Of a stretch of DNA of 64,000 nucleotides, positions 11,291-58,614 are shown piece after piece. The notes under the pieces are model-generated. The model was not told where the DNA came from and searched no databases. It worked only from the letters and a program-made list of their open reading frames with translations. The DNA is taken from assembly GCA_000004695.1 (NCBI GenBank), contig CM000151.3, positions 3,296,001-3,360,000 on the forward strand, read 5' to 3'. Source of the stretch: Dictyostelium discoideum. Its lineage: Eukaryota. Every line of letters starts with the position of its first letter. Within the stretch, counting starts at the first letter, position 1. The translations under genes were made by a program, and so were the position numbers.

Positions 11291-11479
11291 ATAAATAATA
11301 ATAATAATAATAAATAATAATAATAATAATAATAATAAAAATAAAAATAGCTAGTAATAATAAAATAAAAATATTTAAATTATATCTTATACACCCCAAT
11401 TTGTAATTCATCTTTATTTTTTTATTTTATCTTATTGGTTCAAAATTTAAATAAAGATAAGATACATAATAAAATTTTT

Positions 11480-11580: not shown

Positions 11581-11761
11581 TTTTTTTTTCAATGTTTTTG
11601 AACCAATAGGATAATATTAATTATTACAAATATATGTAAAAAAAGGTTATAAATCCCATACCCAATTTGTTAATTGTTTTAAACTTTTTTTTTTTTATGT
11701 ACCATTATTTTTTTTTTTATTATTATTTTATTTTATTAATATCGTTTAATTTAATAAAAAA

Positions 11762-51297: not shown

Positions 51298-52596
<1,299 letters not shown>

Positions 52597-53021
52597 TTTT
52601 TTTTTTTTTTTTTTTTTGAAAAAAAATTAAAAAATTAAAAAAATTAAAATTAAAAAAAAATAAAAAAAAATAAAATAAAAATAAAGCAGATTGGGTCAAA
52701 TGTTTAAAAAAAAAAATTAATCAGAGACATTTGTGTGTTAAAGAAAAAAAAAAAAAAAAAAGAAAAATAGACACAAAAAAAAAAAAAAAAAATTAAAATT
52801 AATAATCAAATATTTAATAATGAAAAAATAGATTCAAAAAAAAAAAAAAAAAAAAAAAAGTTGTTATATTAAAATATTTGTATAATTAATTATAACAATG
52901 ATATAAAGTTTCTGCGAAAATTTTCGTTTTTTTTTTTTTTTTTTTATAGGTTTGAGAAAAATAATGTAAAAATTATGTAAGCCGTTACAAAGTTTTCAAA
53001 TTTTTTACATTGGTTATGAGT

Positions 53022-53058
<37 letters not shown>

Positions 53059-53135
53059 CACAAAAATAATTTTTTTCATTTTTTTAGTTCTTTTTGTTTA
53101 TTTTATTTACGCAACCTTAAAAAAAAAAACACAGA

Positions 53136-53183
53136 ATGGGTATGTCTCTCTTTTATTTTACCCATATAAAAAAAAACAAAGAG

Positions 53184-53214
<31 letters not shown>

Positions 53215-53937
53215 ATAAATAATAAAAAAAATTGGAGCGGTGTTTGATTGACTACAGTAATAAATTAAATTTTGATGATAATGATATTGGCAATAAAAAA
53301 TAAAATAGAAATAAATAATGGAAAAAACCGAAAAAAAAAAAAAAAAAATTGGGGTCTATTTTAGCATTTAGTTCACAGATGAAATGATACACACCATGCA
53401 GGTTTTTTTTTAAAAAAAAAATAGGAAAAAACTGAGAAAATGATAATAATAAAAACAAAAAAAAAAAAAAGAAGAAAAAAAAAAAAAAGAGAAAAGAGAA
53501 AAATAAAATTTAGGGGAATAAAAAAAAGAAAACCAATCATTATCATCAAAATTTACCTTGAAAAATTGTACAAACTTAGGGATCGAAAAAAAAGATACAA
53601 TTTTTTTATTATTTTTATTGGATTCCGTTTTTTTTTTTTCCTCGTCCTTTCAATAATAAAGCAGAATTTTATATTAACTTTTTTTTTTTAAAAAATATAT
53701 TTTCATTCTTTTTTTTTTTTTTTTGATTGAAAAATTATAGGTAAAGTACATGGTGGTTTGAATCGTGCTGGTAAAGTCAGAAACGCTACTCCAAAGAAAG
53801 ATAAGGAAGAAAAAAGAAAACCAAAGGTTGGTCGTGCTAAAAAGAGAATGATCTTCAACAGACGTAACGTCGCCGCCGTCGCTGGTTTCGGTAAAAAGAA
53901 GGGTTACAACACTCAAAACGTCCCAACCGTTGCTTAA
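53136..53937 (+). CDS. rps30: 40S ribosomal protein eS30 (RPS30/FAU S30 moiety). Exon 1 is 4 nt (53136-53139, ATGG), the intron is 53140-53740, and exon 2 is 53741-53937.
   Basis: The spliced product is [66 protein letters not shown], against human KVHGSLARAGKVRGQTPKV...GRAKRRMQYNRRFV...FGKKKGPN. It shows GC-rich, highly-expressed codon usage. The donor is ATGG|gtatgt and the acceptor is ttatag|GT. Confidence 0.85.
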
Positions 53938-54146
53938 ATTTATTAATATACAATTTATAATTAAAATAATAAATTTTTGAAGAAATATTTAACTTTTTTT
54001 TTAAAAATAAAATAAATATTTTCTCCTCCTTATAAAAAAAAAAAAAAAAATCTATTTTAATTTATTTATTTATTTATTTGTTTTGTTTTTCCCAATTTAT
54101 TTTTAAAAAAGGTGTTTAAATAATTATTGTATTTTTATTTTTATTA

Positions 54147-56651
54147 TTAATTTGTATTTATTTTTGATCTAATTCTATTTCTATTCCTATTAATAAGTAA
54201 TGGCTTTTTATCATTTGATATTTGTTCATTTGCAATTTTAATAACTATTGCAGAGATAATGATTGCAACGACAACAACTATTATATTTAGATTATTACCA
54301 AAGAAACCACCAGATTTATTTGAATTACCATGAGTGATTGCACAACAAAGTAATTGTGTTTCAACATTTGATATCTCTTTATGAACATAATCTAAAAATC
54401 CAACAACTTGAGTTGCCACCATTATCAAATCTTGTGAAATTTTATCTTTTTGTGAACTATAAAAATAATAATATATAATTAGTAATTTTATTATTATTTA
54501 ATTAATTAAATAAATAAATAAATAAATAACATACGATGTTAATTCTTTTGAATTTAAATAAGAAGGTATTGATTTAATTTGATTTGTAATTTCATTTGTA
54601 ATTTGTTCTAAATCATTATGTAATCTTTGTACAATTGATTTTAAAATTGGTAATTTCGAAGGTGGAGTATGATAAAGTCTATCAATTATGAAATTACCTT
54701 TATTCAAAGAGATATCTTCAATTTCAAAACCTAATGAATCAATTAAATATTTTGAAGAGAATTTAGTGATTTCATTCAATGCTAAATTTAAATTATGTTC
54801 AGATGATTGAATTGAAGTTATAATGGTATTACGAATGATTGCATCGATAAAGATTTGAGAGATATCACCACTACCACCAGTGAAGGCATTACTAGCATCA
54901 TTTGAACGACCATTGAATAAATTCCAAGGTGATGAACCAAAACTCCATAAGAAATTATTTACCAACCTATTATGAGATTCAGAGTAATGTAAAGTTGGTC
55001 CGAGTAAACCTTGAGATGAACCTAAACCAGCAATAATATTTCTTGTACCTGAATAAAGTGAATTCACTTGTACCGGTAAATTACCTTTATAAAATGTACT
55101 ATTATATGTATGATTTGACATTAAAACAACAATTGCATCTTGATTACTTGCATAGGAATGATATTTATCAAGTAATAAATTATTATAATTATTTGTATCA
55201 TTATTTGTTGATGATGATGTTAAAGCAAAAATATAAACTGGTAAAATTTTTGATTTTTGTGTTGGTGAGTTTCTATTTTTATTATTATTATTATTATTTG
55301 AAACTTTTAAACTTAATGGAATTTGTGAAACATCATTACCAATTAAACCACTTGCTAAAATGTCATCTTCTTGTTTTAGTGATAATAGTAATTCTTTACT
55401 ATCTAAATAATTCTTTCTAACTGAATAGAATTTACCATTGGTTGGATTCATTTCAAAGGAGGAATGAGATTTAATTGATTTTGAAAATGCCATTGAAATA
55501 TGTTTATGTTCATGTATTGAATGTTCTGCAAATACAAATTCAACCGTGGAGAATGGGAATACCTTTTTGGATTGTCTTTTAATTAATTCTAAATCTAGTA
55601 AATCCTTTTGGACATTGACAGAGGATGAATCTTTGAAAATTAGAATTGGTATTAAAATCTTTTGAAATAATGGTACATAATTGAATTTGCAATCTTGTAA
55701 AAACACATTTTGAATACTGGTAATCACCAAAGAAGACATATGAGAGATGATTTCGATTGGTGATGCACCCTGAATGGAAGTGCCGCTGTAGCCATCCTTC
55801 ACAAAGTATTCAATTAGTCTTGGTATTGAGTCATGGCCAATTGAACCCTCTGAATAGTATTCATCAGATGATTTATGTAATGTTGTACCATATTTCAATG
55901 GACCTGCACTTAAATCTATAACAATGAATCTTGATGATCCTATCCAACATGGTGATGTGATTTGACCATTTTTACTATACTGATATTTAAATTCTCCCAA
56001 TCCTGTTTTATCATTATTATTTAATGCTCTACCTGTTAATATTCTCTCTTTTGATGGATTTATAAATATTATACTATAATCTTTATTTGAGTTAGTTGAT
56101 GATGATTTAATCTTTGTAATTTCATTATCAAAATAAGATTCTAAAACTTCAATTTCAACTAAATGAGTTTCACCATCATGTGATGGAGTTGCGCTTTCAA
56201 TTGGTTTCATATTGATTTGCAATAATTGTTCATATAAATCTAATGAGATTCTATTTGATGATATTACATTGTATTTTAAATCGTAGTGTGAAATTAATCT
56301 TTTACCAATATTATCTTTTTCTATATCATCATTATTATTGGCATTACCATTGTTGTTGTCATCATCTTTATTATATGGTTTTAAATAATTTGAATCGAAT
56401 ATTGAATGTACATAATGAATTGGATAGGTTTCAACTAAAAGATCATTTAAGGTTTCTGGTGGTAAATTATATTCGAATGCACCATTACCATCGAATCCGA
56501 TTAATATAATATTCAAATTAATTGGTATACCATTTGGTTCTTCCTCTGCAATGATATCTTCTTCTTGTTGCTGCTGTTGAGAATTATTTACACTTATAAA
56601 TATTATTAAAAATATAATTATTATAGAAATAAATTGAGATAATAATTTCAT
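54147..56651 (-). CDS. Type I membrane glycoprotein of unknown family, with a signal peptide, a large extracellular domain, a single TM helix and a short basic tail. It has 2 exons: about 54531-56651 and 54147-54458.
   Basis: The N-terminus is MKLLSQFISIIIIFLIIFISVNNS. Exon 1 ends ...KELTS|gtatgt and the acceptor is ttatag|SQKDKISQDLIMVATQ... The TM helix is NIIVVVVAIIISAIVI, followed by NRNRNRIRSK. The extracellular part has many N-x-S/T sites. Confidence 0.55.
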
Positions 56652-57892: not shown

Positions 57893-58614
57893 GATTATTA
57901 TTATTTTTTATTTTTTATCTTTTATTTTTAAAAAAACTATTAATATATATATTTTTTTTAAAAATTTTCTGGTATACTTGTTTTATTTTTCTACCTTTTT
58001 TAAATTATAAGTAATATTCCTTTTTATTATTAATAAGAAAATAAAAAAAAAAAATAATAACCTTTTTATTATTAATAATAAAAAAAAAAAAAAATATAAT
58101 AAAACCCATAAAAAAAAAAAAAACAATTACAATTGTAAAATTAACCAATATAAGTTAAGGCAATGTATGAATGTGTTTGTGTATGATAGGCAAAGTTAAA
58201 ATTAAAATAAAATCTACTCCTGTTTTTAAATTCAACTCCCACAAACGCCACACATTATTTAATTTTTATTTTTATTTTTCCGAGAAACTTTGAATTAAAA
58301 TAATAATAAAAATAATAATATTATAATATTATTACCATTTTCCCAAATGAACATTCATGGACCACACTTCAGAAATACCACAACACGCAAACCATTTTGC
58401 TAGTAACTAAAAATAAACAATAAACAAATGAAAAAAAAAATTTAACCCCATTGCTTTCAATTAATTGATCATTTTATTTTAAAATTTTATTTTTTTTATT
58501 TATTTGATTTTATTTGATTTTATTTTATTTTATTTTATTTTATTTTATTTATTTTATTTATTTTATTTTATATTATTTTATTTTATATTATTTTATTTCA
58601 TATTTTCTGTCAAA

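Follow-up and report, generated by a model that had tools for sequence, protein, structure and literature searches.

The long rps30 intron of Dictyostelium discoideum as a candidate conserved pre-mRNA structure

The unusually long intron in the gene for ribosomal protein eS30 of Dictyostelium discoideum may be a conserved cis-acting structure of the pre-mRNA rather than a host for a small RNA, a reading to which we give a probability of roughly 45%. Such a structure would most likely act on the splicing of the essential rps30 gene and could possibly serve as a regulatory switch. All of the features described here lie within one 64-kb stretch of DNA, referred to as the window, and their coordinates are collected in Table 1.

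Joining ATGG to exon 2 (53741-53937) gives a 66-amino acid protein, a member of Pfam PF04758, with 100% identity to the D. discoideum AX4 40S ribosomal protein S30. This agrees with a preliminary description of the locus, in which eS30 was given a 4-nt first exon followed by a 601-nt intron. The intron runs from gtatgt to ttatag. The same description had called the intron unusually long, and the usual D. discoideum intron is reportedly ~146 nt in the genome paper; we found that the length is also kept. In all eight dictyostelids fetched (AX4, L005, D. citrinum, D. firmibasis, D. purpureum, P. violaceum, H. album and C. fasciculata) the phase-1 rps30 intron is long, ranging from 461 to 641 nt, with lengths of 598, 568, 641, 481, 461, 503 and 537 nt in the seven other assemblies, and the ATGG|GTA junction is identical in 8/8 species. 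In A. subglobosum, rps30 was absent from the syntenic locus. Several dictyostelid annotations have rps30 missing or truncated because its coding first exon is only 4 nt long.

Table 1. Positions of features in and around the rps30 intron, numbered from the first letter of the window.
Feature	Position	Strand	Description
eS30 exon 1, coding part	53136-53139	+	ATGG; start codon and first base of Gly2
Predicted 5' splice-site hairpin	53136-53165	+	AUGGGUA (53136-53142), 16-nt loop, UACCCAU (53159-53165)
rps30 intron	53140-53740	+	Phase 1, 601 nt, GTATGT...TTATAG
Conserved 5' block	53140-53173	+	34 nt, 94% invariant in AX4, L005, D. citrinum and D. firmibasis
A-rich tract	53174-53233	+	Can pair with T-rich tracts at ~53600-53640 (co-folding; weak since of low complexity)
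Island 1	53234-53291	+	Proposed 5' strand of helix system; ggagcgg...attggc
Island 1, GGAGCGG	53234-53240	+	
Island 1, H1	53242-53246	+	GTTTG
Island 1, H2	53253-53258	+	TACAGT
Island 1, H3	53266-53285	+	TAAATTTTGATGATAATGAT; includes TGATGA (53273-53278)
Island 1, H4	53288-53290	+	TGG
Island 2	53351-53402	+	ggggtcta...gcagg; in predicted looped-out apical region
Island 2, AGCATT	53363-53368	+	
Island 2, CACAGA	53374-53379	+	
Island 2, end	53396-53402	+	ATGCAG|G
Third island	53533-53575	+	Proposed 3' strand of helix system
Third island, H4	53533-53535	+	CCA
Third island, H3	53536-53555	+	ATCATTATCATCAAAATTTA
Third island, H2	53565-53570	+	ATTGTA
Third island, H1	53571-53575	+	CAAAC
Predicted side hairpin, 3' strand	53579-53626	+	GGGAUC / GAUUCC (masked MFE)
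CCTCGTCC	53640-53647	+	Would pair with GGAGCGG as the outermost G/C helix of AX4
Putative branch site	53672-53678	+	TATTAAC, assigned from sequence; TTATTAA(C/T) in 5/5 group-4 species
3' splice-site region and start of exon 2	53727-53760	+	TTGAAAAATTATAG|GTAAAGTACATGG..., complementary to 5' block
eS30 exon 2, coding sequence	53741-53937	+	Stop codon TAA at 53935-53937

A global MAFFT alignment of the eight introns gave nothing informative beyond the splice sites, and pairwise local similarity among the introns of distant species was at noise level, except between D. citrinum island 2 and C. fasciculata. Within the D. discoideum clade, represented by the four close species AX4, L005, D. citrinum and D. 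firmibasis, the three best conserved blocks of the intron are its first 34 nt and both arms of helix H3, with invariant columns amounting to 94% in the 5' block, 75% and 60% in the two arms, and 12-52% in most of the remaining intron blocks. TATTAAC, the putative branch site, resembles the branch-site sequence UACUAAC. Literature searches turned up no match for the island or arm sequences and no work on the rps30 intron.

Two GC-richer islands had been noted in the intron and both are present, at 53234-53291 and 53351-53402, within the ranges first given for them; furthermore, examination of the orthologous introns, which had been put forward as a check, found the islands to be conserved. A third island, at 53533-53575, was absent from the earlier list. 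Folding suggests that island 1 and this third island are the two strands of one helix system, and in masked MFE folds a long-range helix system appeared at comparable positions in 8/8 introns. In AX4, all 20 of the 20 pairs of H3 (53266-53285 with 53536-53555) are Watson-Crick, and the helix scores 43 compared with 21.3 ± 2.7 in 200 dinucleotide shuffles, none of which reached 43. Likewise, among 317 real 600-nt windows taken from the 64-kb window, this score was matched only by microsatellite pairs and by one other inverted repeat. Across the four close species H3 comprises 15 pairs with 98.3% of cells paired, the one broken cell lying at the helix end, and its substitutions consist of one double change, from A-U to G-C, plus four that alter one side only. 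Each of these four leads to G.U, which fits pairing at the level of RNA and not of DNA.

Other parts of the predicted system also vary between species in ways that keep pairing. In L005 the side hairpin reads GGAAUC/GAUUCC, a change from G.U to A-U, and helix H0, whose 3' strand in the relatives occupies a position equivalent to CCTCGTCC, covaries between GGG/CC(U) in D. firmibasis and AAA/UUU in D. citrinum. The duplex energy of H0 was -11.7, -7.8 and -11.2 kcal/mol in L005, D. citrinum and D. firmibasis, respectively, and weak in AX4 (-3.3 kcal/mol).

These observations have to be weighed against the possibility that the intron has no function, being neutrally long, with chance complementarity between stretches of triplet-repeat-like sequence and with conservation that reflects recent ancestry. 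Long-range pairing is common in AT-rich Dictyostelium DNA: 24/109 control windows matched the 43 bp of total long-range pairing found for the intron by masked MFE, and MFE z-scores of the introns were only -0.5 to -2.4 against shuffles. As whole-intron MFE z-scores and long-range base-pair counts beat shuffles but not real AT-rich windows, we placed no reliance on them. Similarly, the H3 arm is a common motif of the GAT/AAT type (GAT GAT AAT GAT), with 30 near-matches in the window where 4.5 were expected, ~70% of cells still pair when the H3 partner is slid by 3 columns, and H3 covariation among four sequences was not significant against column shuffles (105/500). Nonetheless, we regard an intron without function as improbable, given that conservation of the H3 arms and the 5' block stands far above that of neighbouring intron, and that an intron length of >460 nt is found in five independent lineages. 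Distant species argue in the same direction, since the best long-range helices of H. album and C. fasciculata are formed of complex, non-repetitive sequence and top the same-length control windows of their own loci (1/34 and 0/46, respectively). Neither D. purpureum (20/31) nor P. violaceum (5/35) has a best long-range helix that is significant on its own. A Fisher combination of the best helices of the five independent lineages gave P = 0.005.

As a cis-acting structure, H3 would act together with H1, H2, H4, an outer helix (H0 or GGAGCGG/CCUCGUCC) and pairing of the A-tract with the U-tract, and together the helices would loop out ~250 nt. In this way the 538 nt that separate the putative branch site TATTAAC from the 5' splice site would be reduced to a path of ~70-125 nt, which falls within the ordinary Dictyostelium intron range and would allow a very long intron to be spliced efficiently. 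Measured from the outermost predicted helix to the putative TTAA(C/T) branch site, the linker would be ~71 nt in L005, 74 nt in D. citrinum, 92 nt in D. purpureum, 98 nt in D. firmibasis and 124 nt in AX4. [quoted passage not shown]

Zipper stems occur widely among the ribosomal-protein introns of yeast, and in RPS17B the stem is required (PMC12350175). The rps30 intron is like these examples (RPS17B/RP51B UB1-DB1; PMC12350175) in being a long intron of a ribosomal-protein gene within a genome whose other introns are short, in having complementary segments after the 5' splice site and before the branch site with the middle looped out, and in that sequence diverges between species while structure stays. 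However, the host of rps30 is an amoebozoan, the helix system is much larger, the loop contains a conserved island, and the role of the helices in splicing is a predicted one. A total linker of 42-85 nt, which is a rule derived for the yeast spliceosome, would be attained in some dictyostelids only, and there only if H0 forms. A zipper accounts for the splicing of a long intron but not for why that length persists.

The ~250 nt retained in the loop, which a splicing zipper alone leaves unexplained, could instead belong to a stable structured ncRNA of an undescribed kind, with ends set by the long-range helices and an apical island 2 that carries AGCAUU and CACAGA; the helices would then serve the stability or processing of this RNA and not splicing. 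Ribosomal-protein introns frequently host ncRNAs, and the long intron kept in eight species is in keeping with such a product, as is the conservation of island 2 in the D. discoideum clade (96% identity to AX4 in L005 and 81% in D. citrinum). In addition, a mid-intron CACAGA is common to four lineages, namely AX4, D. purpureum, P. violaceum and H. album (corrected P ~0.013). Yet we consider a stable ncRNA doubtful, as no Rfam family was found in any orthologue, inspection of the masked MFE folds showed no local structure conserved around island 2, AGCATT and CACAGA do not keep their order between lineages, the C. fasciculata apical region consists mostly of (AAT)n, and sequence similarity among distant introns does not rise above noise. 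Nor is the locus among the published D. discoideum miRNA loci (PMC6161686, PMC11014262). A known miRNA locus was rejected since the arm sequences are absent from the miRNA tables in the supplement of PMC6161686, where the intronic mir-7102 locus lies in DDB_G0284713 and mir-1180 is the other intronic locus, and no miRNA is conserved across Dictyostelia (PMC6161686, PMC11014262).

Three further identities for island 2 were considered. By eye the island (AAUGAUACA, ACAGAG, UUAGCAU) resembles U6 snRNA, but its local alignment to U6 scored no better than shuffles in every species, and this identity was rejected. CACAGA(A)TG is recurrent in the group-4 species, and scores for a degenerate copy of exon 1 plus the 5' splice site were at or near noise (13-96/300). 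Finally, ...CAG|GT (53398-53403) found no support on inspection as a recursive site, as a poison exon or as a 3' splice site inside the intron: joining ATGG to 53402 would run into a stop after 8 codons, there is no conserved downstream 5' splice site, and the regenerated GTTTTT would be a poor donor.

The conserved 5' block contains TTATTTTACCCATATAAAAAA (53153-53173), within which lies the DUSE-like ACCCATATAA (53160-53169). This 34-nt block has complementarity to either splice junction, matching AUGG|GUA at the 5' splice site with its start codon as well as UAUAG|GUAAAGUA at the 3' splice site and exon 2, and the DUSE-like motif is better explained by this complementarity to the splice junctions, as read from the sequence, than as a DUSE. 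In AX4 the hairpin predicted over the start codon and 5' splice site has 7 bp, an MFE of -8.0 kcal/mol and 71% of the ensemble, with z = -1.66 against shuffles (12/200), and a duplex test of the hairpin gave 13-44/1000 in the four close species. Analogous predicted hairpins were found in P. violaceum (8 bp) and H. album (4+5 bp), although weakly supported, with none predicted in D. purpureum or C. fasciculata. For the alternative pairing we ran RNAduplex with intron positions +8 to +45 against the 53727-53760 region, which gave -9.6 kcal/mol in AX4 (48/1000), -13.2 in D. citrinum (3/1000), -12.8 in D. firmibasis (7/1000) and -16.5 in P. violaceum (2/1000), and did not reach significance in D. 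purpureum, H. album or C. fasciculata. When the two termini of the intron were paired end to end, only P. violaceum and C. fasciculata gave a significant result.

The conserved blocks might instead act at the DNA level, through intron-mediated enhancement or transcription-factor sites, as an enhancer inside the intron or a promoter-proximal element of this very highly expressed gene, with the complementarity being incidental. The 5' block, the best conserved, is no more than 35 nt from the first exon, its conservation exceeds the 7 nt that a 5' splice-site hairpin needs, and rps30 is a strong and uniformly expressed locus (PMC5976153). On the other hand, complementarity to two splice junctions explains the entire block, conserved blocks 270 nt apart are exact reverse complements with substitutions that keep G.U pairing of the RNA type, and in distant species it is the helices and not the sequences that are kept, which together make a DNA-level element a rather poor candidate.

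[quoted passage not shown] In yeast, RPL7B combines a zipper-stem splicing enhancer with a mutually exclusive structure that is bound by its own protein (PMC12311795). Autoregulated ribosomal-protein introns of yeast whose structures are mutually exclusive or mask a splice site include those of RPL7B (PMC12311795), RPL18B and RPS22B (PMC13232506), and RPL30 and RPS14B (cited in PMC12350175). The rps30 intron is like them in having a conserved element with alternative predicted pairings, one of which would occlude the 5' splice site and start codon, in its essential ribosomal-protein host, and in its position at the extreme 5' end. It differs from them in that its hairpin finds support in the D. 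discoideum clade but little in P. violaceum and H. album, and in that binding of eS30 to its own intron would be hypothetical. To our knowledge, eS30 is not an autoregulator. A broader version, which we think is a long shot, is that a switch is conserved across Dictyostelia, with the C-rich element masking the start codon and 5' splice site in one state and paired to the 3' junction in the other, and with the helices presenting AGCAUU and CACAGA, as a conserved apical motif, to a trans-acting factor; or else that the excised helix system would persist as a new class of stable intron-derived RNA. Candidates for the factor might be ones such as eS30 itself or a sensor of ribosome biogenesis.

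The weakest of the alternatives is the model of the preliminary description, a box C/D or H/ACA snoRNA lying in the intron, or else a small RNA, for instance of Class I, transcribed independently from a DUSE, which we now consider very unlikely, the box C/D form being, on the sequence evidence, largely refuted. The intron does resemble hosts of box C/D snoRNAs in belonging to a ribosomal-protein gene and in having a UGAUGA hexamer in a GC-richer block, and this single TGATGA exists (53273-53278), ~110 nt downstream of the DUSE-like motif, and is kept in the D. discoideum clade. Its standing as a C box is doubtful: it is preceded by U and not by a purine, and it is fully Watson-Crick paired with TCATCA 260 nt downstream, inside the predicted H3, which would make a C/D kink-turn impossible. 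Strict and relaxed box C/D scans on both strands of the eight introns gave no conserved C/D pair. The D box CTGA is missing from the sense strand in 6/8 introns (L005, D. citrinum, D. purpureum, P. violaceum, H. album and C. fasciculata), the sole AX4 copy (53432-53435) is already lost in the closest relative, and in the two species having any C/D pair the terminal stem reached at most 3-4 bp. The proposed search of snoRNA covariance models was likewise negative, with nothing at the Rfam gathering score in the window, nothing credible in the intron at E<=10 and nothing in the seven orthologous loci at E<=1; the sole snoRNA match was a chance snoR12 on the opposite strand, with 18 bits against a gathering score of 39 (E = 3). 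No H/ACA match was found by Rfam in the window, the intron or the seven orthologous loci. Furthermore, island 2 ends in ATGCAGG in AX4, L005 and D. citrinum and in ATACAGG in D. firmibasis and D. purpureum, so an ACA is not maintained, and the 60 nt upstream of this terminal unit include an 18-nt A run.

With regard to the DUSE, the motif ACCCATATAA had been correctly noted, but it was placed at 53163-53172 and lies at 53160-53169, and in AX4 it is separated from island 1 by 67-74 nt and not by the 55-60 nt first given. It can also be read as the one-mismatch DUSE ACCCATAT, which is 100% conserved across the four close species. The window contains 5 exact copies of WCCCAYAA where 10.75 were expected, none of them in the intron, and one-mismatch DUSEs number 147 in the window, four of them inside the rps30 intron, against 207 expected from shuffles, and with such motifs rarer than expected the resemblance alone carries no weight. 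A DUSE sits ~60 nt upstream of the start site or of a TGTG box, and Class I RNAs are ~60 nt long, are closed by a terminal stem of their 5' and 3' parts, carry an 11-nt motif and end in CUGU (PMC7919456). The rps30 motif is like that of DUSE-dependent ncRNA genes (Class I RNAs and snRNAs; PMC7919456) in being a CCC-containing, A/T-flanked octamer one base off the DUSE with a GC-richer block past it. It differs in that the motif is inexact, the spacing varies among close species (down to ~50 nt in D. citrinum and D. firmibasis), and the motif, on the sense strand, begins 21 nt into an intron whose gene is transcribed by Pol II and whose splice junctions it complements. No AAATGTG box accompanies it, there is no 11-nt motif, and inspection found no GGAGCGG complement within 100 nt that could form a Class I stem and no CTGT plus T-run downstream of island 1.

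Structure-assisted or regulated splicing of ribosomal-protein genes has so far been demonstrated experimentally almost only in budding yeast. The present analysis removes a false snoRNA/DUSE candidate and, if the rps30 intron is indeed a cis-acting pre-mRNA structure, the same solution would exist in Amoebozoa and would have been kept since the dictyostelid ancestor. It would also provide a compact and genetically tractable test case, with rps30 already serving as an expression locus in D. discoideum. Should the structure prove to be a switch, it would tie the output of eS30 to the demand for ribosomes, for instance when growth gives way to development.

The junctions of rps30, the gene for ribosomal protein eS30, read cacagaATGG|gtatgtctc...aaaaattatag|GTAAAGTACATGG, and splicing of ATGG (53136-53139) to 53741-53937 gives a 66 aa protein with the C-terminus NVPTVA, which has 100% identity with the 40S ribosomal protein S30 of D. 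discoideum AX4 and carries Pfam PF04758. Because this product is AX4 S30, the first intron is fixed at 53140-53740 (601 nt, phase 1, 18.8% G+C). The convergent gene downstream encodes the AX4 DUF7906 transmembrane protein. rps30 is essential and lies in the chromosomal duplication of AX3/AX4, where it has served as a safe-haven integration site (PMC5976153), and AX4 should therefore have two copies of the intron. The preliminary description of this intron was partly confirmed, being correct in substance with some coordinates off: its motif resembling the DUSE (ncRNA upstream element [A/T]CCCA[C/T]AA) is present three bases before the position reported, and its two GC-richer islands and TGATGA are also present, at revised positions.

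Features of the rps30 locus
Feature	Position	Strand	Remark
RNase_T gene	52069-52596	-	oligoribonuclease-like
rps30	53136-53937	+	
DUSE-like motif ACCCATATAA	53160-53169		
Island 1	53234-53291		
H3 5' arm TAAATTTTGATGATAATGAT	53266-85		in island 1
TGATGA	53273-78		
Island 2	53351-53402		
H3 3' arm ATCATTATCATCAAAATTTA	53536-55		third island, absent from preliminary description
TATTAAC	53672-78		putative branch site
DUF7906 gene	54498-56651	-	

With eS30 protein and the neighbouring syntenic DUF7906 gene as guides, we fetched orthologous loci from seven further assemblies. All fetched orthologues share ATGG|GTA and an identical intron position, and at 461-641 nt in all loci, against a usual Dictyostelium intron of ~146 nt, intron length has been held far above the usual through the deepest dictyostelid splits. 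The order RNase_T, rps30, DUF7906 is conserved in group 4 and P. violaceum; a MMM1/PDZD8_N gene is directly upstream of rps30 in H. album and C. fasciculata, and in A. subglobosum rps30 does not adjoin DUF7906. At three loci that do contain both exon and intron, the 4-nt coding first exon has defeated gene callers, with rps30 uncalled in the NCBI annotations of GCA_054859355.1 (L005:5700-6570(-)) and D. citrinum GCA_054859145.1 (L006:5750-6600(-)), and annotated as 'partial' without exon 1 in D. purpureum (L002:2520-3201).

Intron length, best-helix controls and predicted 5' block/3' junction duplexes by locus
Locus	Intron (nt)	Control windows scoring >= intron	Duplex (kcal/mol)	Random targets as stable or more
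AX4	601		-9.6	48/1000
L005, second D. discoideum assembly	598			
L006, D. citrinum	568		-13.2	3/1000
L001, D. firmibasis	641		-12.8	7/1000
L002, D. purpureum	481	20/31		
L003, Polysphondylium violaceum	461	5/35	-16.5	2/1000
L004, Heterostelium album	503	1/34		
L007, Cavenderia fasciculata	537	0/46		

The arms of the predicted helix H3 are exact reverse complements forming a 20-bp helix, with a score of 43 against 21.3+-2.7 in shuffles (0/200 equal); in the rest of the window, microsatellite pairs apart, a single further inverted repeat reaches this level. It is a 19-nt repeat of complex sequence, TTATCTTATTGGTTCAAAA/TTTTGAACCAATAGGATAA (11427-11445 and 11596-11614), with arms 150 nt apart, and is the sole non-microsatellite pair scoring like the rps30 helix. 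MFE folding with homopolymer runs masked placed H1 (GTTTG/CAAAC), H2 (TACAGT/ATTGTA), H4 (TGG/CCA) and GGAGCGG/TCGTCC around H3, and on co-folding the 5' A tract pairs with the 3' T tracts. In a four-species alignment (AX4, L005, D. citrinum, D. firmibasis), 94% of columns are invariant in the first 34 nt, 75% in the H3 5' arm and 60% in the 3' arm, against 12-52% in other intron blocks. Across these species the 15 aligned pairs of H3 are 98.3% paired, with a double change from A-U to G-C in D. firmibasis, four more changes, all to G.U, and one broken cell, which is terminal. Covariation measures with four sequences did not exceed column shuffles (105/500), near-matches to the H3 arm are frequent in the window, and ~70% of cells still paired when the partner was slid by 3 columns, because the arm is triplet-repeat-like. 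H0, an outer helix, is weak in AX4 but strong in three relatives (L005, D. citrinum and D. firmibasis), among which GGG/CC(U) is swapped for AAA/UUU.

Introns of distant species show no more than noise-level sequence similarity to AX4, yet every one of them is predicted to fold into a long-range helix system that is comparably placed. Scored against same-length windows from each species' own locus, the best helices gave P = 0.005 by Fisher's combination over five independent lineages. Total long-range MFE base pairs exceeded shuffles in every species, and 24/109 real AT-rich AX4 windows matched the intron's value; the argument therefore rests on specific helices, and a "giant rod" case from total pairing was dropped.

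Island 2 sits in the predicted looped-out region; across it, L005 is 96% and D. citrinum 81% identical to AX4. Its CACAGA is common to D. purpureum, P. violaceum and H. album (corrected P ~0.013) and its AGCATT to all lineages, in varying order. No consistent local fold was found for the island, and a similarity test found no U6 likeness. It resembles CACAGAATGG (53130-39), just 5' of the start codon, non-significantly. CACAGA itself occurs at 53130-53135, directly before the start codon, and at 53374-53379 in the island; the D. purpureum intronic copy reads CACAGAATGGG, nearly exon 1 sequence, which is statistically non-significant. The repeat may be left over from an exon 1 duplication, or may mimic a splice junction. 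A zipper stem (an intron helix shortening the distance between 5' splice site and branch site) alone gives no reason for retaining ~250 nt in the loop, which keeps two rivals in play: an RNA derived from the intron, or a platform for protein binding.

In the 5' block that holds the DUSE-like motif, TACCCAT (53159-65) exactly complements ATGG|GTA (53136-42). A local hairpin is predicted at -8.0 kcal/mol, making up 71% of the ensemble (12/200 shuffles reach this), and in a duplex test on the four close species it is reached by 13-44/1000 random targets. Analogous hairpins are predicted in P. violaceum (UGGGUAUG/UAUACCUA) and H. album (GGGU..UGUUU/AAACA..ACCC), neither significant individually, with none in D. 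purpureum or C. fasciculata. The block UAUUUUACC-CAUA also complements the 3' junction UAUAG|GUAAAGUA, with the duplex values tabulated above for four species and non-significantly in D. purpureum, H. album and C. fasciculata. Complementarity to two junctions fixed by coding and splicing accounts for the invariance of the whole 21-nt motif beyond its CCC core, which a promoter element leaves unaccounted for.

The proposal that the intron houses a snoRNA or DUSE-driven ncRNA was rejected. Rfam gave no family reaching the gathering score in the 64-kb window, just two matches within 52900-54000 when relaxed to E<=10, both ascribed to chance and one of them on the opposite strand, and at E<=1 in the seven orthologous loci no match apart from a tRNA gene elsewhere in the C. 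fasciculata locus (L007:64-136 (-), RF00005, 66 bits), unrelated to the intron. No RUGAUGA...CUGA pair occurs on either strand of any of the eight introns; in a relaxed C-box scan CTGA (D box) is absent from the sense strand in 6/8, and the sole AX4 intron CTGA is not kept in L005. Since TGATGA falls within the 5' arm of the predicted canonical helix H3, the "C box" would simply be a helix strand. Exact DUSEs number 5 in the window against 10.75 expected (0 in the intron), one-mismatch forms 147 against 207 (four in the intron), and spacing from the DUSE-like motif to island 1 varies by ~20 nt among close species. On inspection, the terminal stem and CUGU end of Class I RNAs (PMC7919456) are absent from the intron, and published D. 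discoideum miRNAs do not include the helix arms. Elsewhere, an exact DUSE ACCCATAA at 58104-11 (+) is followed ~65 nt 3' by TGTG-box-like GAATGTG (58169-76) and a stretch ending ...CTACTCCTGTTTTT (58215-28). The stretch 58104-58228 (+) has the published D. discoideum Class I RNA gene layout (PMC7919456); Rfam gave no match to this candidate, and two further exact DUSEs are close by (58237-58244 (+), 57098-57091 (-)).

What stands of the preliminary description is its underlying idea of conserved functional RNA elements within an abnormally long ribosomal-protein intron. TTATTAA(C/T) is conserved in all five group-4 species, and with TATTAAC as branch site the linear distance from the 5' splice site would be 538 nt, falling to a path of ~124 nt in AX4 and ~71-98 nt in relatives if the helices form. 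This predicted path comes close to the length of ordinary introns and to the 42-85 nt by which yeast zipper stems are defined (PMC12350175). Such stems are a frequent feature of the long ribosomal-protein introns of yeast, and RPS17B needs its own for efficient splicing (PMC12350175). In yeast RPL7B the zipper stem is a splicing enhancer in competition with another conserved structure, to which Rpl7 binds (PMC12311795), and additional yeast ribosomal-protein introns are autoregulated via conserved structures (PMC13232506). Because the predicted helices would shorten the path and these precedents exist, we propose that the rps30 intron may be a cis-acting splicing structure, in which the 5' block possibly acts as a switch. 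The best explanation, to which we give a probability of roughly 45%, is that the intron is conserved and structured in the manner of the zipper-stem or autoregulatory introns of yeast.
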